DNA of 64,000 bases from a virus, in the IMG/VR virus record IMGVR_UViG_3300015050_001142, positions 1 through 64,000 of that record; one strand, given 5' to 3'. The notes below the pieces were generated by a model. That model worked only from the letters and a program-made list of their open reading frames with translations, searched no databases and was not told where the DNA came from. The position numbers and the translations under genes were made by a program. Positions within the stretch are counted from its first letter, which is position 1; every line of letters starts with the position of its first letter. This document shows positions 5,255 through 48,607 of the stretch, piece by piece.

Positions 5255-5333
5255 TGCAAAGAGAGATGGAATCGAACCACCGTACACCGAATATTACTAT
5301 CCGAGAGCTTACCGCTTGCTACTTTATCTCTCT
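5255..5333 (-). tRNA. degenerate tRNA-like element (possibly Tyr/GTA-derived)
   Basis: Minus strand: AGAGAGA/TCTCTTT acceptor-like stem and T arm GGTGG-TTCGATT-CCATC; D and anticodon arms are irregular. Confidence 0.45.
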
Positions 5334-5490
5334 ACCAATACTTAACGTTGCCAGCAACCCTAAAATCGCTTAAATTTGGAACTGGCAGATGTTTTTCCCT
5401 GCTTATTAAGTATTCCCTCTCAATCGTTTTTCTCCCTCTGAGGTTATGGGATAGATCTCCAATTGTCATGAAGACATATGATGATCAGTG

Positions 5491-5562
5491 TGATGAGACT
5501 GGGGATCGAACCCAGGACATACGCATTTGAAGTACGTTATTCTACCTCTGAATTATCTCATC
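5491..5562 (-). tRNA. tRNA with UCA anticodon (opal suppressor type)
   Basis: Full cloverleaf: GATGAGA/TCTCATC acceptor, ATTC-AGAGGTA-GAAT D arm, ACGTA-CTTCAAA-TGCGT anticodon arm, 5 nt variable loop, CTGGG-TTCGATC-CCCAG T arm, discriminator A, no encoded CCA. Confidence 0.9.
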
Positions 5563-5567
5563 AGTAT

Positions 5568-5719
5568 TCTACTAAGATACAAAATGCCTCTTATTTTTAA
5601 TGACCATGCAAAGAGTATCATGCTGCCATTTCTCGGCTCCCAATTTAATGGTACTGTAGTGGGGATTAGGTCAATCTCACCCCTCAAGTGGTATCTCAAC
5701 CAATTTTGTACTTAGTAGA
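5568..5719 (-). ncRNA. candidate structured RNA
   Basis: Ends pair on the minus strand (TCTACTAAG-TACAAAAT with ATTTTGTA-T-CTTAGTAGA); non-coding gap between the PTH2-like gene and the tRNA. Confidence 0.4.
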
Positions 5720-5724
5720 ATTAT

Positions 5725-6042
5725 TTACTCAAGCATTGGTAAGCTTGAAAAGATATTATGCTTATCTGTACAACAACTCATTGCTGTTTTTTGATTACCA
5801 ATACTAGGTTCCCTAAATGCAAATGATGCGATTGATCTTTGTGCGAGTTTTCTTTGCCATAACTTAATAGCATCCTCATTGGGTACCAGTAATAAAACTT
5901 TTGTATGCACTTCGGGTAAATCGTTAACACCATTTTTATAAAAGTAATTATCGCACCATAATTCAACCGCATGACATGCTTGTACAGCTCTCTGAGCATT
6001 ACTAAGATCCTGTCTGACCAAGATATACAGTTTCGGGGGCAT
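5725..6042 (-). CDS. PTH2-like peptidyl-tRNA hydrolase domain protein
   Basis: KLYILVRQDL...AVQACHAV...KVLLLV.NE...FREP.IGNQKTA. Confidence 0.75.
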   Translation of the reverse strand: MPPKLYILVRQDLSNAQRAVQACHAVELWCDNYFYKNGVNDLPEVHTKVLLLVPNEDAIKLWQRKLAQRSIASFAFREPSIGNQKTAMSCCTDKHNIFSSLPMLE

Positions 6043-6388
6043 AGCGTTTCAGGATTTCTTGTAAATATTGAGGGTTAATCTTTTCTGCTTGTTTGAGTGT
6101 AACTGCTGGCAGAAGCTTTGTATAACCACCATACTTGGTACGGAATTGATTATACGCGATGTACATATGCCTGAGATCTACTTTATTGATCTCAACCATA
6201 CGTGTTGCATCAGACGATTCTAACTTACGCAAACCAGTACCAAAGTTTACAGTCTTACGGTTTAATTTAATACAGGTTTGCTCTTCTGAGAGCCTTTTAA
6301 TGTCAGATTTGAATCTGTCTTTCTGCTGTTTGTACGCTTTCTGTGCAGCTAATACTTCTGGAGATAATTGTTGTTGATTAGTTTCCAT
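6002..6388 (-). CDS. phage hypothetical protein (RH..IAY motif)
   Basis: DLRHMYIAYNQFR; overlaps the PTH2-like gene. Confidence 0.65.
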   Translation of the reverse strand: METNQQQLSPEVLAAQKAYKQQKDRFKSDIKRLSEEQTCIKLNRKTVNFGTGLRKLESSDATRMVEINKVDLRHMYIAYNQFRTKYGGYTKLLPAVTLKQAEKINPQYLQEILKRYAPETVYLGQTGS

Positions 6389-6523
6389 GTTTGGAGATTT
6401 AGTTGTTCAAATAATAAATGATCGATTAGATTGAACATCATGGAGAACCTCTTGTTGATACTCATTTCATAGTGTAAGAGTTTTTGATGATCAAATGTAA
6501 GAAGTTGAATTGAATTAAACAAA

Positions 6524-6718
6524 AATGATAGCCTATCCACGTTATAGGATTACGGCTGGGTGGTATACCGGTCTCCCCGTCTTTTCAGGTCTCCGCACCT
6601 GCAAGGTCCTGCTATCAAGAAAATAAAAAGAACCAGATCCCTGGTTTTTAGAGCATTGCCAGCACTGGCTTTAGCATCCCAGCCAGGTAACGTCCTCTGG
6701 GCCTTGTCACTGATTCTT
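6524..6718 (-). ncRNA. two adjacent candidate structured RNAs
   Basis: GC-rich non-coding segment with closing stems AAGAATCAG/CTGGTTCTT and TGATAGC/GCTATCA plus internal hairpins. Confidence 0.35.
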
Positions 6719-6753
6719 CCAAAATTGTTGTATTTTTATTAAAATTATCGAAT

Positions 6754-7758
6754 ATGCCTGATCTAATCAAATTCGGTTCAACCGATAAAGCTGCAATACA
6801 GGATATCAAAACTAAGCTTAATGCATCAGGCAAATATGGTAAAATTGATGTAACCAATCCAGTATTTGATTTCGGTACTCTTGAAATTGTTAAACAATTC
6901 CAGAAAGATAATGGGCTTAAACCAGATGGTATTGTAGGCCCACTTACTCAAGCGAAATTGAATGCTCCAAAGAGTTGGGCAGTACCTGCAGATAAGCCGG
7001 TTAAGGCTTCTACTGATAATACACGAGTGGCTAAAGAATTGCATCCAGAAATGGCTACAAGCAATGATCAAACCGCTATTGGTAAAATATTAGCCGATGG
7101 TTTGCGTAAAGCAACACCTTTTGTGCCCAACAACGTTGGTAACTGGGCGCGAAAGAAAATGGGAATATCAACAGCCATGAATAATAATTCTATTAAGAAA
7201 ATGGATAAAGCGGCTCTTTACAAAATGGTTGATAATGCTATTAAACGTACTGGTAAATTATCAGGTACTACTGAATATGAAGATTACGAAACTACCCCTA
7301 ATGCAAAGAAAAAGATTATAGAAATTAAAAAGGGAAATCTTAATCCGTTGATTGGTGCTTATCTTGGCACTGTAGACCCAGCTTATAATATGGCTACAAC
7401 AGTAGGTAGAGGAAGTTACACTAAAGATCCTGTCACTGGTAATATTAAGTATACTGATAACTATGATTTCAAAAATAATTTTACGCAAGATTCTACTACC
7501 GGTAAATTGAAAGCCGGGTATATGAAAAATCGTGATGATTTTTATGGAATTGAACGTAGGAAACTTGCTGAAGAAGCTAACACAGAATCTCAAAGCAAAC
7601 GCCCCCCTGCACCGAACAAGATTCGTTTTGATCTATCTCCTAAAGATACAATAGGGTACCAAAAATTTCTTGATTCAAGGGGTGATATTGCTGGTTTATC
7701 ATCTAACAAATCTGCAGCGCGATCTCTTTACGATCGATATCATAAGAAGAGTAAATAA
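6754..7758 (+). CDS. peptidoglycan-binding domain protein with a virion/cargo-like C-terminal region
   Basis: N-terminal PG_binding_1-like motif (FDFGTLEIVKQFQKDNGLKPDGIVGPLT) closely matches the N-terminus of the endolysin at 23589. Confidence 0.8.
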   Translation: MPDLIKFGSTDKAAIQDIKTKLNASGKYGKIDVTNPVFDFGTLEIVKQFQKDNGLKPDGIVGPLTQAKLNAPKSWAVPADKPVKASTDNTRVAKELHPEMATSNDQTAIGKILADGLRKATPFVPNNVGNWARKKMGISTAMNNNSIKKMDKAALYKMVDNAIKRTGKLSGTTEYEDYETTPNAKKKIIEIKKGNLNPLIGAYLGTVDPAYNMATTVGRGSYTKDPVTGNIKYTDNYDFKNNFTQDSTTGKLKAGYMKNRDDFYGIERRKLAEEANTESQSKRPPAPNKIRFDLSPKDTIGYQKFLDSRGDIAGLSSNKSAARSLYDRYHKKSK

Positions 7759-7881
7759 GATGATAATCATCGATGGCATGATAATCACAAATAACCATAC
7801 GTTTAACGCTTCATAGGTTGTATGTAATTGAGCTGCCCAAAATTGTAGTGCTTCAACGCACCAATAGAACACTTTGTTCAT
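7699..7881 (-). CDS. small membrane protein
   Basis: TYEALNVWLFVII followed by a hydrophobic helix. Confidence 0.6.
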   Translation of the reverse strand: MNKVFYWCVEALQFWAAQLHTTYEALNVWLFVIIMPSMIIILFTLLMISIVKRSRCRFVR

Positions 7882-7903
7882 ATACTTGAATTTAGTAAAA
7901 AAT

Positions 7904-8256
7904 AAGATTGATTATAAGCCTCAGAAGTACGCTTCAGCCCAATGGCATCACCGTTTCGACCACGTTCTCTGATCAAGAGTTTTGTGCGGTACTTTATAAT
8001 CAATCTCTGCTCCCGGAAGAATATCACTACTCAACCGGGAATTCGTTGTGATGCGCCTACCTGCATTCACATTAAGACCGCAGGACAGTTTATGAAGATT
8101 TCTCTTCTCATGTTAGGCCGTTGTCAACGAAGGGTTTAGTAACCTCTGAAAATCACCAAGACCTAATTTAATCTCTCGATAAAAATGAGGCCAGGGTAGA
8201 AACTCCGGCCGTGATCTTTAAACGTTTGTATGGTCCTTATTTACTATCGAGGAGAT
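7904..8256 (-). ncRNA. cluster of structured intergenic elements
   Basis: 13 bp closing stem AGATTGATTATAA/TTATAATCAATCT (about 7904-8006), the repeated 30 nt hairpin at 8011-8040, and further hairpins. Confidence 0.45.
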
Positions 8257-8262
8257 AGTTAT

Positions 8263-8799
8263 TTAATGCAGTTTTGAAGCTGCAGCTGTTACTGTTTCAT
8301 TGAATCCTTGCTCACAGGTTTTAGCCATATCGAGTACTAATTCTGCTTCAGCAACCTGCTTGTTTTTAGCCAGTACCAATTCAATGGCATCATCTACCGC
8401 TGCTGTACGCTGCCCTTTCAGAATGGTCAGAGAACAACTGATGATCACATTCTGCAGGTTCATTGGGAATTGCATCAGAATACCAACAATCTCATTTTGT
8501 GCATCCTGTGGACGGCCATTGAAATCTTTGGATTTCTTGAATTCATGCAATTGACCAGCTACACTTTCCAGGTTCTTTTTGTAATCTTCAACCTGAGCTT
8601 TCAGATCATTTACATAACCATCACACACAATACTGTGACCTTCAGGTACCGGCTTCAAGTTCTGCTTAAGCTGTTTACTTGCTTTCTTTACTTCTTTTTC
8701 CAACTTGTTAATAGCTGCAGTTCTTACAACTTTCTTAGCTGATTTCTTCGGAGCCGGTAACTTCTTTACTGTTTTCTTCTTTGTTTTTGGCGTTGCCAT
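8263..8799 (-). CDS. Lys-rich N-terminus plus coiled-coil hypothetical protein (likely start 8799)
   Basis: MATPKTKKKTVKKLPAPKKSAKK...; the upstream extension of ORF 8263..9045 overlaps the next gene. Confidence 0.7.
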   Translation of the reverse strand: MATPKTKKKTVKKLPAPKKSAKKVVRTAAINKLEKEVKKASKQLKQNLKPVPEGHSIVCDGYVNDLKAQVEDYKKNLESVAGQLHEFKKSKDFNGRPQDAQNEIVGILMQFPMNLQNVIISCSLTILKGQRTAAVDDAIELVLAKNKQVAEAELVLDMAKTCEQGFNETVTAAASKLH

Positions 8800-17542: not shown

Positions 17543-17728
17543 TTATCGATCAGGATTCATTTCACCCTGATTACTGTATGGAATTTGTGTGTCGTTATCG
17601 CCATAAGGATCGTTGAATTGTGATTCTGTTTCATCACCAATAATCCAACCACATTCATCACAGTGATCTTCATCACATGGTTCACCACAAGATGGGCAAT
17701 GATATTCTTCTTCAGGTTCGTTGTTCAT
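17543..17728 (-). CDS. acidic Zn-ribbon small protein
   Basis: CPSC/CDEC pairs; D/E rich. Confidence 0.6.
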   Translation of the reverse strand: MNNEPEEEYHCPSCGEPCDEDHCDECGWIIGDETESQFNDPYGDNDTQIPYSNQGEMNPDR

Positions 17729-17973
17729 AAAAGTAATTTTTTCTGTTCCCAAGGAACAATATAGTTATCAATAAAATTCTTTGCAGTTTGTAATGTGTGT
17801 TCAGGAGATGTATATGGTTCAAATAATTGATTACCCCACTGATCTCTCTTACCCTTGATTAGAGTACCAATTCCATGCCTACGAACTTTGAATTTACCGG
17901 TAGATAATTTCTCAAAGATCTTGTAACAAGAACCAATAAGCTCGATAGTGTAACCATTGTATTCTTGTTTCAT
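17725..17973 (-). CDS. hypothetical protein
   Basis: 82 aa ORF. Confidence 0.6.
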   Translation of the reverse strand: MKQEYNGYTIELIGSCYKIFEKLSTGKFKVRRHGIGTLIKGKRDQWGNQLFEPYTSPEHTLQTAKNFIDNYIVPWEQKKLLL

Positions 17974-24393: not shown

Positions 24394-25593
24394 ATGCCCA
24401 CACTACATATTATCCATCTGCCAGAGAGAACTGATCGGATGGAGCTGCTTCTCAAGGAATTACAGGAACAAGGTATTACTGATTATCGTATTTGGCCAGG
24501 TATTAAGGATGAAGCCAATCCCTGTCGCGGTATCTCTGCAGCGCACAAACAAATAGTAGCATATGCAAAAGCAAACAATCTTGAAGAGATCACTATCGCT
24601 GAGGATGATGTGTCTTTCACTGGGCCGCGAGCATGGGAATACTACCTCGCAAACAAACCAGGTACTTTCGATTTATATCTTGCGAGCGTTTATGTCTTAC
24701 ATGAAATCCGTGGGCATCACATTGAAAACTTCACAGGACTTACCCTGTATACCATTCGCGCCAGATTCTACGATACGTTCCTGTCTACATCTACCGAGGG
24801 TAACATTGATGTAAATCTGTATGGTAAGGGATGGTACGCCTTATGTTATCCATTTGCAGCTATTCAGCACGAAACTTACTCAGACAATTCCAAAGGATTA
24901 ATTAATTACCAGCAATATATTCGTGGTAAACTTCTCTATGGACAGGAGCCAGAGAAAACATTTCCAGTTAATTTATTCGTTAATTTCTATAAAGACTCAA
25001 ATGAAGATCGCTACAAAGAACTGGAGAAATGTCTCCGGTCAAACATTGCTAATCCACTTATTGATAAGGTATACGTGTTTTGTAATGAGCAGGATAGAGA
25101 CTTGGTACTGGGCTTTCCTGATCTTCATAAGGTAGGACTCATCATTAGAGAAGATCGACCAACTTATGGTGAGATGTTTGATGAAATCAATTCTCGTACC
25201 CGCGAATTTGAGGTTAATATTCTTTCCAATACAGATATCTATTTTGACGAATCACTCATTCATGTACATGGAATTAAAAATAATCAATGCTACGCTTTGT
25301 CCCGCTGGGAGTTTGGCATAGTTGAACAGGTACAGACCAGAGGAGATAGTCAAGATACATGGATCTTCCGTGGAAAGATCAGAGAATTAGCTTACACTCA
25401 TTTTACATTAGGTAAACTTGGATGTGATAATCGTATCGCGCATGAACTGGTACTGGCCGGCTATGAAGTAACAAATCCTTCACGTACAATTAAAACCTGG
25501 CATTTACATGAGTCAGGTATTCGTAATTACAATTCTACAGATGTTTCAGTACCTCAACCTTATTATAAAATCAAACCACACGAACTTGTATGA
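24394..25593 (+). CDS. two-domain glycosyltransferase (GT25-like plus GT-A-like)
   Basis: IIHLPERTDR, GISAAH, IAEDDV; second domain ILSNTDIYFD, ALSRW, DSQDTWIF, GCDNRIA. Confidence 0.75.
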   Translation: MPTLHIIHLPERTDRMELLLKELQEQGITDYRIWPGIKDEANPCRGISAAHKQIVAYAKANNLEEITIAEDDVSFTGPRAWEYYLANKPGTFDLYLASVYVLHEIRGHHIENFTGLTLYTIRARFYDTFLSTSTEGNIDVNLYGKGWYALCYPFAAIQHETYSDNSKGLINYQQYIRGKLLYGQEPEKTFPVNLFVNFYKDSNEDRYKELEKCLRSNIANPLIDKVYVFCNEQDRDLVLGFPDLHKVGLIIREDRPTYGEMFDEINSRTREFEVNILSNTDIYFDESLIHVHGIKNNQCYALSRWEFGIVEQVQTRGDSQDTWIFRGKIRELAYTHFTLGKLGCDNRIAHELVLAGYEVTNPSRTIKTWHLHESGIRNYNSTDVSVPQPYYKIKPHELV

Positions 25594-42126: not shown

Positions 42127-42789
42127 ATGAAAGTAGAAGGCATTAAAGTACACACAATAAAACACATGTGGGAAGCTTATTCTAAAAAAATTGTAGAAGC
42201 CAATCCTGATTGTATTACTGTGTACCAAAATAACATTCATAATTTTTACATTTTCAAACCTAAGACCAGATCTAAAATAATTACAACTGTTTTCCCTTCG
42301 CGTACAAGTTATCGTAGAGAATATAGTATGGATGGATTAATCTTCAGCTATGAGATGTTTCGTAAAATAATAGATGATTATTTCATGAAAGCTCGTAAAG
42401 AAATCGTTGAAGGTAATGCCCTTCGTTTAAATACAATGGGAGTAATCTGCGGTAAGCGTGTAGAGAGAGATTATCGTAAATCAAAACAACGAATGATCAA
42501 TTGGCAGAAGACTAAGCTTCAACCTTTAGTTTATGATGAAGCACTTGGCCGAGATCGATATGAGAAAAAGATTTATTTTACTGGTGATGATTGGTGTCGT
42601 ATAGCCTGGTGTAAGACTGTGCCGGTTACAAATATGACTGTATATGAGTTTACTCCGACATCTTCAACATCTGGTCAAAGAAATGGATTTAAATCTCAAT
42701 TCACTGATGCACTTGCTTCTAACCCATTATTGAAATATCAATATTTATTTGAACCAATATATTATCCACCGATTAAGCCAACAGTATGA
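42127..42789 (+). CDS. IHF-like protein of the crAss-like tail module
   Basis: EIVEGN.LRL..MG...INWQKT...RIAW.K. Confidence 0.6.
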   Translation: MKVEGIKVHTIKHMWEAYSKKIVEANPDCITVYQNNIHNFYIFKPKTRSKIITTVFPSRTSYRREYSMDGLIFSYEMFRKIIDDYFMKARKEIVEGNALRLNTMGVICGKRVERDYRKSKQRMINWQKTKLQPLVYDEALGRDRYEKKIYFTGDDWCRIAWCKTVPVTNMTVYEFTPTSSTSGQRNGFKSQFTDALASNPLLKYQYLFEPIYYPPIKPTV

Positions 42790-43625
42790 TCTATACATCA
42801 ACAGGTATAAAAGAAGTCATTGGCCGTGTTATACGTAATACCCGTATTCAGGACAGTTCTTATATTTCTGATATGGTTGAATGGATACCGGAAGCAATGG
42901 GACTCATGCAAACCAAGATGGAATTAAAACCTGCTTATGAAGATATACGTGTGAATTTTCATATGGGCAAGCTTCCATGTAATCTTCGCTGGATCACTGC
43001 AGTTGAATGGAATGGTTGTCGTATACCTGAAAACAATTCAGCACGATCTGCAGCAAGTATTTCCCGCAGGCGTATTGATGCAGCATTAGGTACTGCTGAA
43101 GGTTTTATAACAGTACCCACTAAATGGGATACACCTACAGGTAATCAAATGTATGATACTGCACTGGTACAATTCAGTTCATTATGTGCTGATTCATGTG
43201 GAAGACTTCCTTGGAATCAGGCAGTATGGTACCAGGTAGAAATGGATTACTTACAGTTCTCAATTGCTGATACTGTAGTAAGGGTACATTACAAAGGAAT
43301 TCCATTAGATGAAAATGGATTCCCGTTAATTCCTGATGAAGAAAATTATAAGCAAGCTCTTTATTTCTATACACGGAAGATGATGATCGGTGCAGGATAT
43401 GAAGATAAAGTTTATACCATGTTACAGCTTGATGCTGAATTTGAAAAGTATGCTGGTCGTGCAATGGGAAAGATTCGGTACCCTTCTGTAGATTCAATGG
43501 ATATGAAAGTTGATCGAATGACAAGATTAATTGTTGATCCTAATTACTTCAATTCATTTTTCTCCGGTACTGGTCCAGAGAAATTTTATGGTTTACCAAG
43601 CAAAATAAACTATCCTAACTTATGA
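42786..43625 (+). CDS. tail tubular/ring protein
   Basis: EWIPEAM, GKLPC, HYKGIPLDENGFPLIPD. Confidence 0.75.
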   Translation: MIYTSTGIKEVIGRVIRNTRIQDSSYISDMVEWIPEAMGLMQTKMELKPAYEDIRVNFHMGKLPCNLRWITAVEWNGCRIPENNSARSAASISRRRIDAALGTAEGFITVPTKWDTPTGNQMYDTALVQFSSLCADSCGRLPWNQAVWYQVEMDYLQFSIADTVVRVHYKGIPLDENGFPLIPDEENYKQALYFYTRKMMIGAGYEDKVYTMLQLDAEFEKYAGRAMGKIRYPSVDSMDMKVDRMTRLIVDPNYFNSFFSGTGPEKFYGLPSKINYPNL

Positions 43626-46600
43626 AGCCAATAAAAGGAATACAAATGGATAATCGTCCCTCAGAGCAACCTGAAGGGACTTATCCGTTTGGTAAGAATG
43701 GTATTCAATTTGATTTGAATGGATCTGTATTCAATGAACCAGGGTTTAGAGCAATGACTGCAGTAGTACCTTATGCACTTAATGGTATAATCGAAACTGA
43801 TGATAAGCCAATATTATTCTCAACAAATAATACTAATTCAGCAATTGGTTTCTTTAATCCAAAGACTGAATTATATGAACCCATTATCGATGATGCAAAC
43901 TGGGCTTTAACAGGACAGTATCTTGGGTTTAAGATTGAAAATTATATTACCGGTGAATCTCAGCGTAATTATAAAGGAGAGATGGTAGTAACCTTTACTG
44001 ATAAGGTAACGTATCCAAAATATCTTAATTGTGATAATCCAAGCCTAGCATCAATTGATGATTTGAGATTATTCGCATATTTTCTTCCACCAACATTAAC
44101 TGTAGTACAAGCTCAAGGCGGTAAACTTTTACCCGGTACTTACTATGTTGCAGTTGGCTATGAAAGAAATGATGGTACTTCATCTCCTTATTCTGCAGTG
44201 AGTAATGGCACTTTTGTTACTCCGGGCGCTACTATTGGAGTAACAAATAAATCACTAAGCATTACAATCGATAATGCAGATACAAGTTATGATTCAATCC
44301 GTGTTGCAATTATATCTCGTATTGATGGTAAAACAACTGCAGTTGAATTAAATGATTTCTTACCCATTACAGGCGCTACAATTCAATTGACATATACAGG
44401 TGTAAATCCAAGTACTGATATTGCTATTGAATCAATATTAACTCCACCAGCTTTGTACAGTAAGGTTGGAACAATGGGACAATTAAATGATGCTTTGTAT
44501 TTGGCTGAACTTGAGAAAGAACCGGATTTAGATGATATGCAGCCTTATGCTGCTTCTGTTATTTTAGAATGGACTTCAGAATTAATGAATGCACTTAATC
44601 CGCCAGAAGAACATGTTACCGGGATCAAGAAATCTAATATGCACGAGGAAGTTTATGCTAGATATATTAGGTACCGTAAAGCTCGTGGTGGATTCACTAA
44701 ATGGTACGTTATTCCTGGACCGGTACCTGAAGCTGCAGATATAGCCGCATCATCAGAAGCTGCTGTAAGTGGATATACTGGCGGAAGTGTACCGAAATTT
44801 AAAGTAGAAGATACGATTCATTATTTCGATCCTGTTGCTAAAACGGGATCTTGTGGTGTTTGGGTAAATACAACTGAAAGATATCCAGACACAGTTGATT
44901 TCGATGCTACATCTATCGGCGGACCAAACCTGCGTAATCAATTGGTTCGTCACCATAAGATGCCATCTCTCAGATGGTGTAAAGCAAATCTTTATCAAAC
45001 AGAAGATGATTATGGTAAAACTAAACTCGATCTGCTTGGTGTGCGTGCATTAAATGTTCGTATTCCAGATAAATATATTGGAATTATTAATGGTTATGAA
45101 CTTGGATATGCATTACGTACAACAGGTAATATGACTGTACTTGGCCAAGGAGCATTAATGCATGGAGCTACTGATACACGTAATTATCAGCATGCATTAA
45201 ATACAATACCAATCTATACAACTGGTGGAAATTTTACCAGTGCCATATTTCATCCAACAGTAAACTTTTTTAGTTCGGATCGTGGTCCGTGGAATGATGA
45301 TGATGCATTACAGGATCTTAGACTGGATACAATGAGATTTCATGCGTTTGATTTATTATTCAATAAACCTGCGATATCTCCAACATTTATATCTGCACAG
45401 TTTAAGCTTCACAGAGATATTGGCTATCCTCAATACTTAGAAGATGGTACTCTTGACGATACAGTTCCTGGTGATGCACCATTAGGATTTTTAATTGATT
45501 ATACAATTGGATTGAAACCTGTACAAATTGCAACTGGAAAGAAACTTCGAGCTATTGGTTCAAGTTTCTATCTTGATAATACAGTTAATGTAAATCAGTT
45601 TGTAAATCTTAGACACGAGAATACATATGGTGGTACTTTATTAGGAACTCCCTGGAGTATTGTGTATGGTAATTCATCATTAAGAATGCGCCGTGGTAAT
45701 GCTACTGATTATACACTCGGAATGCCACCTTATGAAGAAACTTACCTCATCAATCTTCTTTCATTGAAGAATGACATCTATAATAATTTCTATTCTCAAA
45801 TGCTTGTATCATCCGGTACCGCAAAAAGTCTTTCTGATATAACTCCATTCTGGGGCGGCGATACATTTAATTGTGATTATACTTTTCATACTTATGGAAG
45901 ACATGATGCTGTAGATTCAGAAGGTGATGGATTTAGAGGAAAGAAAATAGTTCGTAGAATTATTTGTGAAAGCGTATCGAACATTGCAGTAAGATATGAG
46001 ATACCAGGAAATATTTATTCTAAGTGGTACCCACATAACTCTATTACAACAGGAGTACCTGAGCAATGTTATCCTACATTTCAATTAAGAACTGAAGATC
46101 CTAATCAATTTGGATACTCTAAAGATTTCAATGCATTGAATGATTTAATTGATGCAACAATATATTCTCCATTCAGAGAATATATTTATTCGTTTCCATT
46201 TCGTATTCATCGTGGTGGTAAGAATAATCGTCAAACAAGGCCACGTTCATGGAGAACATTTTTACCACTTGATTACTATGAATGCCAAAAGAATATGGGC
46301 CGGATAATTAATCTGGAAGGTTTAGATGATCACTTATTAATTCATCACGAAAATGCATTATTCCAAACTTTGGATAAATTAAAACTTGATGGGGATGTAT
46401 TATCTGTAACACTTGGTTCCGGTGATATATTTCAGTTTGAACCACAAACACCAATTGATGCTAAACTCGGCTATGCAGGTACACAGCATGATTTAGCATG
46501 TATTAAAACTCCAATGGGGTACTTTTTTGTTGATGCTAAACAAGGAGAAGTATATCTCTATAAATCTAATACTCCTCAAAATCTTAATGCGGGTGCAAAT

Positions 46601-48607
46601 ATTTTCTTACGTGAATTCTTAAAAATAACTGAGAAGAACACATATATAGGTAATGGTATCACTGTAGCATGGGATCAGAAATATAAAAGATTATTACTTA
46701 CAATTAAAAATAGAACTGTTGGAACTGGTGTAATTAAAATATTCCAGGATACAGATGAGTTTTGGGATTCACTTGAAGTTGGTGATGTTGTAAGTTATAA
46801 AGGTAGATTAGTTCAATTCAAAGGAAATAATGATACAATTTATTCCTGCCCAACTGTACCAACTCCTGAAGTATTGGTATGGACAAAGACTACTCCTTAC
46901 TGTACTCCAAATGATCGCAGTCCTGCGGGTAATAGCGGAATGAAAGCCTGGAGATATCGTACAAGAACTGGTGGAAGTCCTAATCCATATGTTGAATTAA
47001 ATACGCCTAACAGTGGATTGGGACCATACTTTCCACCTGAATATGATCCTGCGACATGCCCTTTACCAATCCCGGTTGTTGAATGGATTGGAATAAATCC
47101 TTATTGTGTTAAATCAGGTGGTGGAAGCCAGTGCCCTGTTGGTTGGACTCTTTCAGATGATGGTACATACTGTTATATGATCGATCAATACCCGGCAACT
47201 GCATCAACATCTCCAGCATCTGTATTGAGATTAGCACATTTTCAATACGAACATTATGGAGAAGTGGGTACTGTTGTACATAAACTTAATGGTTTCAATG
47301 CTGATGGTACTTGGGATACAGGTGATTCAGCTAAATGGCCAAATATTTATGCCCCTATAGCTTATCAAACTGTTTACAATCATGCTACTGTAATTGACTA
47401 TCCATCAGGAATGTGGAGAAATGCATTATCTAATTTAACTGATGGCAGACTAAATACAGCAGGTATATGGTTACAGGGGAATCAAAATTATAACGGTACT
47501 CTTGGATTTTCAAGGCAAGTAAATATTCCTGTTGCCGGTACTTATTACATTGGTGTTGGATCTGATGATTATGGTACTATTAAAGTCGATGGAGTAACTG
47601 TTGTAATGCAATCAGTAGCTACATTATCTGGTGTAAATTATTTGAATACGCCTGGTCAAGATTGTTTATTCAGACACTGGATATTATATCCAGTACAATT
47701 AACTGCAGGCCCACATATATTTGAATTGATTAGTACCAATACTGGTTCATTAGGCATTCTTGGAATGGAAATATATGTAGGTGATGAAGCAACTTTAATG
47801 GCTTTAACAAGTCTTGATGCCAGTCATTATTTATTTTCTACAAAAGATGAAATTGATGGAGATCCATTTGATGTTGGTAATTATAATTGTGATGCTTATC
47901 CTGGATATCAATTAGTAAATGATGGCGGTGTTTATTATTGCCGTAAAATAACAACTCAAGCGCCTGTAGCCGGTGAAACAAATACCGGATCAAAAGGATA
48001 TAACGATCGTGCACGAATAACTAATGGAGAACGCGATGGTTATGAAGAGCCTAATACATTGTTTGATGGACTAGGCACATACGTACCCCCAATTGTTGAT
48101 TATACAGCTTGTCCAGTAACATCTCCAGTGGCATCTCCGGCAGATCCGATAATTAGTGGTACTGTAACAAAGTTCTGCAGTGATGAAGGTTGTGCCGTAG
48201 AAGGGCATGTATCTTTATACCTTGAATTTGATCAACCGGTACCATTTGACTTGGTTTTATTAGTAGGAGAATTGATTACATTATTTGATGGACGTAAAGA
48301 ATATACAGGCAGTGATATCTTTACTCCACCACCAGGCGCAAGGCCGAATCAACTCTTTTATCAGGCAGGAGCTGGTAAGAATACTCCATTTGAAATCAAT
48401 ATCCCTGCAGGCGCAAGAGGTATTACTATTCCTGAAATCATTTATCAAGAAGGATACTTTGGGGTACCTTTCGCCGATTGGAGATGCAATAATTGTCAAT
48501 ATCCAATAAGTGATCTTTATTTCAAATTAAAACTACCTGAATCTGGGTACACTTTGAATTTACGTGGAGCAGAGAGTCCTGGAATAACTATTCATAATCA
48601 AAATTAA
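43622..48607 (+). CDS. tail stabilisation (muzzle) protein, N-terminal part, with appended Cys-rich/PA14-like domains
   Basis: KGIQMD..PSEQPEGTY, VRHHKMP, WGGDTF, SWRTFLPLDY, GYAGTQH, YFFVDAKQG. Confidence 0.8.
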   Translation: MKPIKGIQMDNRPSEQPEGTYPFGKNGIQFDLNGSVFNEPGFRAMTAVVPYALNGIIETDDKPILFSTNNTNSAIGFFNPKTELYEPIIDDANWALTGQYLGFKIENYITGESQRNYKGEMVVTFTDKVTYPKYLNCDNPSLASIDDLRLFAYFLPPTLTVVQAQGGKLLPGTYYVAVGYERNDGTSSPYSAVSNGTFVTPGATIGVTNKSLSITIDNADTSYDSIRVAIISRIDGKTTAVELNDFLPITGATIQLTYTGVNPSTDIAIESILTPPALYSKVGTMGQLNDALYLAELEKEPDLDDMQPYAASVILEWTSELMNALNPPEEHVTGIKKSNMHEEVYARYIRYRKARGGFTKWYVIPGPVPEAADIAASSEAAVSGYTGGSVPKFKVEDTIHYFDPVAKTGSCGVWVNTTERYPDTVDFDATSIGGPNLRNQLVRHHKMPSLRWCKANLYQTEDDYGKTKLDLLGVRALNVRIPDKYIGIINGYELGYALRTTGNMTVLGQGALMHGATDTRNYQHALNTIPIYTTGGNFTSAIFHPTVNFFSSDRGPWNDDDALQDLRLDTMRFHAFDLLFNKPAISPTFISAQFKLHRDIGYPQYLEDGTLDDTVPGDAPLGFLIDYTIGLKPVQIATGKKLRAIGSSFYLDNTVNVNQFVNLRHENTYGGTLLGTPWSIVYGNSSLRMRRGNATDYTLGMPPYEETYLINLLSLKNDIYNNFYSQMLVSSGTAKSLSDITPFWGGDTFNCDYTFHTYGRHDAVDSEGDGFRGKKIVRRIICESVSNIAVRYEIPGNIYSKWYPHNSITTGVPEQCYPTFQLRTEDPNQFGYSKDFNALNDLIDATIYSPFREYIYSFPFRIHRGGKNNRQTRPRSWRTFLPLDYYECQKNMGRIINLEGLDDHLLIHHENALFQTLDKLKLDGDVLSVTLGSGDIFQFEPQTPIDAKLGYAGTQHDLACIKTPMGYFFVDAKQGEVYLYKSNTPQNLNAGANIFLREFLKITEKNTYIGNGITVAWDQKYKRLLLTIKNRTVGTGVIKIFQDTDEFWDSLEVGDVVSYKGRLVQFKGNNDTIYSCPTVPTPEVLVWTKTTPYCTPNDRSPAGNSGMKAWRYRTRTGGSPNPYVELNTPNSGLGPYFPPEYDPATCPLPIPVVEWIGINPYCVKSGGGSQCPVGWTLSDDGTYCYMIDQYPATASTSPASVLRLAHFQYEHYGEVGTVVHKLNGFNADGTWDTGDSAKWPNIYAPIAYQTVYNHATVIDYPSGMWRNALSNLTDGRLNTAGIWLQGNQNYNGTLGFSRQVNIPVAGTYYIGVGSDDYGTIKVDGVTVVMQSVATLSGVNYLNTPGQDCLFRHWILYPVQLTAGPHIFELISTNTGSLGILGMEIYVGDEATLMALTSLDASHYLFSTKDEIDGDPFDVGNYNCDAYPGYQLVNDGGVYYCRKITTQAPVAGETNTGSKGYNDRARITNGERDGYEEPNTLFDGLGTYVPPIVDYTACPVTSPVASPADPIISGTVTKFCSDEGCAVEGHVSLYLEFDQPVPFDLVLLVGELITLFDGRKEYTGSDIFTPPPGARPNQLFYQAGAGKNTPFEINIPAGARGITIPEIIYQEGYFGVPFADWRCNNCQYPISDLYFKLKLPESGYTLNLRGAESPGITIHNQN

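Follow-up and report, generated by a model that had tools for sequence, protein, structure and literature searches.

tRNAs that read stop codons have already been described in phages that use the standard genetic code, and such a tRNA alone is a known puzzle, named as one in the papers on the phages XacN1 and Atu_ph07 and on Zeta crAss-like phages (PMC5852040; PMC6102473; PMC12386605). The cultured Agrobacterium jumbo phage Atu_ph07 carries a tRNA-UCA, although UGA is the stop codon of 267 of its genes (PMC6102473), and no client was identifiable for the two tRNA-CUA genes of Xanthomonas phage XacN1 (PMC5852040). In the Zeta crAss phages, "non-functioning" suppressors were found in 2025 to have been kept over long divergence, and a host-weakening idea was put forward (PMC12386605). 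Yutin (2021) proposed both the "pre-emergence" of suppressors and an anti-defence role (PMC7886860), and Borges (2021) described a standard-code Agate phage with a TGA suppressor in which TGA had been depleted beforehand, to 4 of 146 genes (10.1101/2021.08.26.457843). A pre-recoding state, disruption of the host, and read-through of selected genes are all published hypotheses (PMC7886860; 10.1101/2021.08.26.457843; PMC12386605).

The stretch of DNA analysed here (the window) comprises the opening 64 kb of one viral record of 95,585 bp. The TerL, portal, and major capsid protein of this genome matched crAss-type PHROGs, and the capsid protein was approximately 33% identical to those of gut crAss-like phages and 60–76% identical to those of uncultivated IMG/VR relatives; these matches and identities therefore place the genome in an environmental crAss-like lineage. 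The window contains a tRNA gene with the anticodon UCA next to a gene for a protein similar to Pth2 (Table 1). What is added here is the link between the suppressor tRNA and this neighbour: with a probability of roughly 0.6, the two appear to form one cassette, rather than to mark a genome-wide change of code.

Table 1. Features of the minus-strand block around tRNA(UCA), in window coordinates
Feature	Position	Strand	Remarks
Degenerate tRNA-like element	5257..5333	minus	Rfam RF00005, 22.7 bits, under the cut-off of 29; E 0.062
tRNA, anticodon UCA, opal suppressor type	5491..5562	minus	ARAGORN; Rfam RF00005, 66 bits (gathering score 29), E 3.9e-12, model positions 1-71 of 71
Spacer, Pth2-like stop codon to tRNA 5' end	5563..5724	minus	RNA fold -42.3 kcal/mol, z -2.66
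Pth2-like gene, 105 aa	5725..6042	minus	Motifs Y-x-x-V-R-x-D-L, Q-x-x-H-A, F-x-E-P; PF01981; AF2; Foldseek
128-aa gene, first of the co-oriented block	6002..6388	minus	Overlaps the Pth2-like start by 41 nt
In-frame TGA 3 codons before the Pth2-like ATG	6049..6051	minus	Position of the matching stop in the family
Hypothetical 27-codon leader, from ATG 6132 or GTG 6129	6052..6132	minus	Code 4 translation, in frame with the TGA
TACATTTG, Bacteroidota-type -7 promoter-like word	6492..6499	minus	Consensus match, about 105 nt upstream of the block

The tRNA(UCA) gene

ARAGORN made a single tRNA call in the window (5490–5562, minus strand, anticodon tca). The gene is 72 nt long and lies on the same strand as the surrounding genes. 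Read on the minus strand, it has a 7-bp acceptor stem, a 4-bp D stem, a 5-bp anticodon stem, and a 5-bp T stem, with a 7-nt anticodon loop (C-U-UCA-A-A), a 5-nt variable loop, and the T loop TTCGATC. The positions characteristic of RF00005 members are present, namely U8, A14, G18G19 in the D loop, U33, a purine at position 37, and the T-loop motif TTCRA, as is A9. The acceptor end consists of a G1-C72 pair and the discriminator A73, and CCA is not encoded. The preliminary description of this DNA, which reported a 72-nt UCA tRNA with this loop, G1-C72, and A73, was therefore correct according to both ARAGORN and Rfam. With the anticodon UCA in a canonical 7-nt loop, tRNA(UCA) is of the opal suppressor type and, judged by its sequence, a functional-looking reader of UGA.

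ARAGORN labelled the gene "SeC" because the anticodon alone triggers that label. Bacterial tRNA-Sec has an 8-bp acceptor stem combined with a 5-bp T stem, a 6-bp D stem, a long variable arm, and G73. The 7/5 arms, 4-bp D stem, 5-nt variable loop, and A73 of tRNA(UCA) rule out this identity, which the preliminary description had likewise rejected.

The elements that specify the amino acid are ambiguous, in that C35 and A36 fit Trp but A73 does not. A73, which the preliminary description had set against the G73 normal in bacterial tRNA-Trp, is the commonest discriminator among viral UCA tRNAs (22 of 42 unique sequences among the matches listed in an IMG/VR pattern scan, against 15 of 42 with G73) and so is not unusual in this class; it also occurs in 35 of the 64 suppressors of the cassettes described below. 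Since U34 is able to read both A and G, and C35 and A36 are identity elements for TrpRS, the gene might encode a Trp tRNA that mainly boosts UGG decoding by wobble, as in Mycoplasma and mitochondria. We give this idea almost no credence: TGG accounts for just 1.35% of the codons in the genome, A73 departs from the G73 of bacterial Trp tRNA, the linkage to the Pth2-like gene would be left unexplained, and the cassette versions with CUA and UUA anticodons do not fit it.

No near-identical copy of tRNA(UCA) turned up in exact-pattern scans of IMG/VR, GTDB genomes, and metagenome contigs; the sole exact-pattern matches, at two loci (L001 and L094), arose by chance, and neither is a tRNA. When tRNA(UCA) was compared with phage records by blastn, all matches were weak, to Asn, Lys, Arg, and Trp tRNAs. 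Its similarity to the cassette suppressors was 64%, against 61% to other tRNAs, so it is no closer to them.

The absence of near-identical copies from these scans would accord with an inert relic of a former tRNA array, or with an assembly error in the anticodon, the gene doing nothing in either case. A degenerate tRNA-like element with a good acceptor stem and T arm and an 8-nt anticodon loop lies approximately 160 nt downstream of tRNA(UCA), and one relative has a 23-tRNA array, both of which also suit a relic. Nevertheless, the flawless cloverleaf with all conserved loop positions, and the recurrence of the same gene–tRNA arrangement in dozens of unrelated phages, make an inert gene very improbable.

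Other unusual RNAs occur in the genome and its relatives. A second tRNA gene lies outside the window, at 94281–94353 on the minus strand of the complete record (G000; L102:10281-10353), with an Rfam score of 51.8 bits. Its anticodon stem has 4 bp and its 9-nt loop, A-A-G-A-C-A-A-U-C, has no U33; ARAGORN reported it as Cys(aca), and it cannot be a normal decoder. Two relatives carry tRNAs of 51–54 bits with 8-nt anticodon loops, called as "ggtt" and "caac" by ARAGORN (L087:15383-15457 in G004 and L095:19-93 in G006), and expanded anticodon loops seem to recur in this crAss-like lineage. Full-length tmRNAs were found in two crAss-like relatives with 63% identical capsid protein (L048:1498-1843 in G002 and L096:1498-1843 in G009; RF00023, 72 bits; tag ending ...AADKAIAA), which adds a second type of RNA for translation rescue to those of the clade. 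An array of approximately 21 tRNAs occupies 42714–46750 of G005 (L090, a 47-kb fragment), and ARAGORN accepted no tRNA in the complete genomes G001–G003. The tRNA content of the clade is very unstable.

Genetic code of the genome

Translation in this genome follows code 11, with TGA as the stop codon of about one gene in four. Among the 108 called genes, the stops were TAA in 73, TGA in 25 (23%), and TAG in 10, and in 19 of the 25 genes with TGA the stop overlaps a start codon as ATGA. The preliminary description had likewise stated that TGA is still a stop and that such overlaps are many. The comparison of coding density that it had proposed, made across the whole 95,585-bp genome with a non-overlapping ORF set, gave no gain (93.2% cover under code 11 and 93.6% under code 4). 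No in-frame TGA was found on the coding strand when all ORFs of five relatives were compared with the genome by tblastn, all stop matches being antisense or at natural gene ends; TerL, portal, the major capsid protein, and the other conserved genes contained none. The proposed search for a synthetase or release factor, extended to the whole genome, detected no RF-1/PCRF or class Ib synthetase domain, and thus no accessory RF1 or TrpRS gene of the sort that some recoded phages carry (PF00472, PF03462, and PF00579 without a match at E ≤ 1).

The preliminary description had offered a pre-recoding state as one explanation of the tRNA. The phage would then be at the start of a shift to TGA as a sense codon, a course suggested before for crAss-like and Agate phages. 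There are indeed published cases of suppressors in standard-code phages related to recoded ones (10.1101/2021.08.26.457843; PMC7886860), and the genome has a low GC content (37%) and prefers TAA. However, TGA is undepleted, at 25 of 108 stops compared with the 4 of 146 genes in the published precursor, and its share falls within the 10–28% observed in relatives that have no UCA tRNA. After a TGA stop, the next TAA or TAG was a median of 5 codons away, which did not differ from the relatives (p = 0.51), so back-up stops are no closer. Neither the TGA share nor the back-up stops show any sign that the genome is adapting to the suppressor. In addition, conserved genes lack in-frame TGA, code 4 brings no gain in coding, and none of the relatives examined was clearly recoded. 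The Zeta crAss paper itself argues that long-retained "idle" suppressors misfit such a model (PMC12386605). An incipient change of code is therefore improbable, and this claim of the preliminary description was not borne out.

Among the relatives, the complete genomes G001–G003 have neither a UCA tRNA nor a Pth2-like gene. One fragment of 41.9 kb (G006) gave an ambiguous "tca" call with the loop G-C-U-U-C-A-U and contains no Pth2-like gene. The small-gene arm of the genome was not conserved in the relatives, and an endolysin query matched PG-binding domains alone.

Several candidates for hidden recoding or for UGA read-through were rejected. ORF sets under code 4 and under TAG=Q merged no real genes, and nothing was seen in the lysis region (6350–8300). 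The sole candidate for a client of the form ATG-x-TGA (93967–94359) is an ORF crossing the second tRNA-like gene, and genes of this form were not in excess (one candidate with TGA, against control candidates with TAG and TAA numbering five and two). Apparent TGA read-through extensions at 17725–17973, 24394–25593, and 78820–81678 are alternative frames of the next gene with further TGAs inside. No convincing UGA client other than the Pth2-like gene was found in the genome.

The Pth2-like gene and its recurrence beside stop-reading tRNAs

The Pth2-like gene adjoins tRNA(UCA), 162 nt upstream of it on the same strand. The 105-aa product matched PF01981 with E = 6.8e-4 and 20.3 bits, under the 23-bit cut-off, and all 30 of its ESM Atlas matches were in viral PTH2-annotated clusters. 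A HMMER search identified 248 representative clusters of approximately 100-aa proteins at E ≤ 1e-3. As a query, the single protein found no relative in IMG/VR. PF01981 was matched by 31 of 63 family members at E ≤ 1e-3, and a profile built from the 63 members matched the PDB Pth2 entries 24bt/2zv3 at approximately 1e-8. The structure predicted with AlphaFold2 had a pLDDT of 95.5, and the top 11 Foldseek matches were Pth2/Bit1 proteins, including archaeal Pth2 and human Bit1, plus one uncharacterised protein (probability 1.0, TM 0.65–0.76). The modelled protein thus has the Pth2 alpha/beta fold.

The phage protein shares with Pth2 (PF01981; PDB 2zv3, 1xty, 1wn2, and 3erj; human Bit1, 1q7s) the fold and the motifs R-x-D-L and Q-x-x-H-A, but it is approximately 15% shorter and 13–20% identical, and the family has F-x-E-P-D and T-A signatures of its own. 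Q21, H24, and E78 are retained in the 105-aa protein. No conserved residue of the family corresponds to the Lys of the GK motif in Pth2, and the window copy has Ser in the E-P-D motif where >90% of members have Asp; because of these two differences, the hydrolase activity is only putative.

The minus-strand block consists, in order, of a 128-aa gene that has no Pfam match, the Pth2-like gene, a structured 162-nt spacer, and tRNA(UCA). The spacer has near-perfect complementary ends that form a stem of approximately 18 bp abutting the tRNA and enclosing approximately 110 nt. It matched no Rfam family at E ≤ 1, and a theta or HDV-like ribozyme beside the tRNA was likewise not matched at this threshold; the fold might serve in processing or termination. 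The block may be driven from the promoter-like word TACATTTG; a looser word, TANNTTTG, was not enriched in the window.

To characterise the linkage in both directions, we collected viral loci by tRNA and, separately, by protein. In the forward test, IMG/VR loci were picked solely by the tRNA(UCA) pattern (n ≥ 116). Among the 116 listed, nine contained a Pth2-type gene, of which eight belonged to the present family and one was a canonical Pth2, so that the family is present in only approximately 7% of the UCA-tRNA loci listed. At four of these loci (L147, L183, L203, and L186), the UCA tRNA is the sole tRNA and lies 3–727 nt from the Pth2-like gene on the same strand; at two others (L132 and L107), the distances are 125 and 179 nt. 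About half of the longer UCA-tRNA loci, among the matches listed, appear to be standard-coded. For the reverse test, protein similarity was the sole criterion in picking 80 IMG/VR loci; the domain was present in 73, with a tRNA within 4 kb in 69 of these; the nearest tRNA had the anticodon CUA in 54.

After dereplication at 90% identity, 72 public viral loci and the window remained, and a stop-reading tRNA was located near the Pth2-like gene in 60 of them. The median distance between the suppressor tRNA and the gene was approximately 200 nt, with 52 of the 60 pairs at ≤1 kb, and the tRNA was upstream in 27 and downstream in 33. In 44 of 56 cassette loci, recoding TAG raised the ORF cover by <8%, and hence these loci are mostly standard-code. 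The layout in the window, the gene followed after 162 nt by the tRNA, is typical of the set, and the family member and the stop-reading tRNA lie within approximately 1 kb of each other on the same strand. Membership of the window in the cassette set is well supported by this arrangement.

For each dereplicated locus, an in-frame stop within the domain was scored as the gate; where the domain had none, the first one upstream of it in the same frame was taken. Among the 51 CUA-linked loci, this was TAG in 37 and TGA in none, with a nearby TAA (an ordinary upstream stop) in five and no stop within 12 codons in nine. The eight UCA-linked loci had TGA in six, including the window, TAG or TAA in none, and no stop within 12 codons in two, and the single UUA-linked locus had TAA. 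The association of CUA and UCA with TAG and TGA had a Fisher p of 1.6e-7, although the loci are related and the counts overstate the number of independent events. Gating is not universal, since a gate matching the tRNA is missing in 12–14 CUA-linked members. The typical gated layout is ATG-x-(x)-STOP-x-x-K-L-Y-V-x-x-R-x-D-L, often without a later start. We found no paper describing either the cassette or this covariation of anticodon and stop.

The tRNA bodies in the cassettes are diverse, the commonest features being G1-C72 (54 of 64) and A73. Such diversity suggests that what counts is the anticodon, and not which residue is inserted. Among the cassette CUA suppressors, type II bodies with long variable arms (at L248/L250 and others) occur alongside type I bodies, and the cassette suppressors therefore derive from different tRNA classes. 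In XacN1 (L222; AP018399.1, 243756-244595), a Pth2-like domain forms the C-terminal part of the 279-aa "hypothetical protein" ORF364, four genes downstream of a gene annotated as "glutamyl-tRNA amidotransferase"; the two CUA suppressor tRNAs of this phage sit in its terminal repeats.

In the window copy, the in-frame TGA is as far from the domain as the gate stop of L107 is, and it accords with the UCA–TGA rule. A TGA ≤3 codons upstream of the start occurs by chance in 9 of the 111 genes of the genome (8%), so the TGA in the window agrees with the rule but is no proof of it. The ATG at 6042 follows the TGA and aligns with family position 1. The upstream ATG that usually stands 2–7 codons before the gate stop is absent: L107 and L203 have it three codons ahead of the stop, the window copy has AAG there, and the nearest in-frame upstream ATG (6132) is 27 codons before, within the preceding gene. 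The hypothetical leader from this start lies inside the 3' end of that gene. The window copy is thus outside the class of obligately gated genes, which have a start 2–7 codons upstream of the stop and none after it. The ATG that follows the TGA probably allows synthesis of the protein without read-through as well, and the gate in the window may be a relic or may use the far upstream start.

Read-through of a selected gene, the third explanation offered in the preliminary description, is the best-supported reading of the tRNA, with the Pth2-like gene, to which that description had not connected it, as the candidate client.

Proposed mode of action and comparison with known systems

How the cassette acts we infer from its layout. 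tRNA(UCA) would be transcribed together with the minus-strand block, and then excised and CCA-tailed by host enzymes. Charged by a host synthetase, it would compete with RF2 at UGA, its selected client being the neighbouring Pth2-like gene. Trp is the usual guess for the inserted amino acid, which would probably be of little weight because the bodies of the cassette tRNAs are very different. The Pth2-like product might in turn hydrolyse ester-linked tRNA species, for example peptidyl-tRNA left by read-through. More tentatively, and at less than an even chance, the cassette could be a self-contained switch, in which synthesis of the hydrolase-like protein is confined, wholly or for the most part, to the time when the phage suppressor overrides the matching stop. 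The window would then hold an opal (UCA/TGA) version of this switch, either gated from a distant start or recently un-gated.

The own ATG of the Pth2-like gene in the window would be compatible with the published hypothesis of a weapon against the host (PMC7886860; PMC12386605), in which the tRNA, produced in bulk, would read through host UGA stops and harm host or defence proteins, and the Pth2-like enzyme would clean up the side effects. The cassette itself is also compatible with this, and the highly expressed structural genes of the phage (30166–41376) all end in TAA. However, the phage genes end in TGA as often as those of relatives without the tRNA and have no extra protection, and the stop that tracks the anticodon inside the neighbouring gene would be left unexplained. 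We regard a host-directed weapon as unlikely, though less so than an incipient change of code.

Against the puzzle posed by suppressors in non-recoding phages, the anticodon-matched linkage to one small protein family offers a testable answer, in which tRNA and neighbour together would make up a single device. If this is true, a switch of this kind would explain the "idle" suppressor tRNAs in many standard-code phages, and would be a natural tRNA-operated gene switch of use in synthetic biology. It would also call for caution before an alternative code is deduced from any suppressor tRNA in a phage, and would draw attention to a so far unstudied branch of the Pth2 fold with tRNA as its target in the course of infection. 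For annotation, gated Pth2-like genes will be truncated or missed by gene callers.

Several known systems come close. Atu_ph07, XacN1, the alpha and Zeta crAss-like phages, and the Agate relatives likewise have a stop-reading tRNA, many genes that end in the same stop, and no evident client. In the papers on these standard-code phages, peptidyl-tRNA hydrolases are separate "translation genes" unlinked to the suppressor or to a matching in-frame stop. The genome studied here differs from those phages in that tRNA(UCA) is essentially its sole canonical tRNA, in a 95.6-kb environmental crAss-like genome. The recoded crAss-like, Lak, Jade, and Agate phages (code 4, TGA=Trp; code 15, TAG=Gln) employ the same tool, a suppressor charged by host enzymes, and share the idea that read-through licenses a subset of genes. 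In contrast to them, the present genome has no in-frame TGA in conserved genes, no gain in coding density, and no RF1 or TrpRS. Within the cassette set, the window represents an opal version, in a crAss-like phage, with a gate that has no nearby upstream ATG. Finally, the autoregulation of prfB (RF2) offers a likeness by analogy and not by homology, in that the synthesis of a translation factor hinges on the decoding of a stop within its mRNA; whereas prfB senses the level of RF2 through a +1 frameshift, the cassette would rely on a tRNA of its own, encoded next to the gene.
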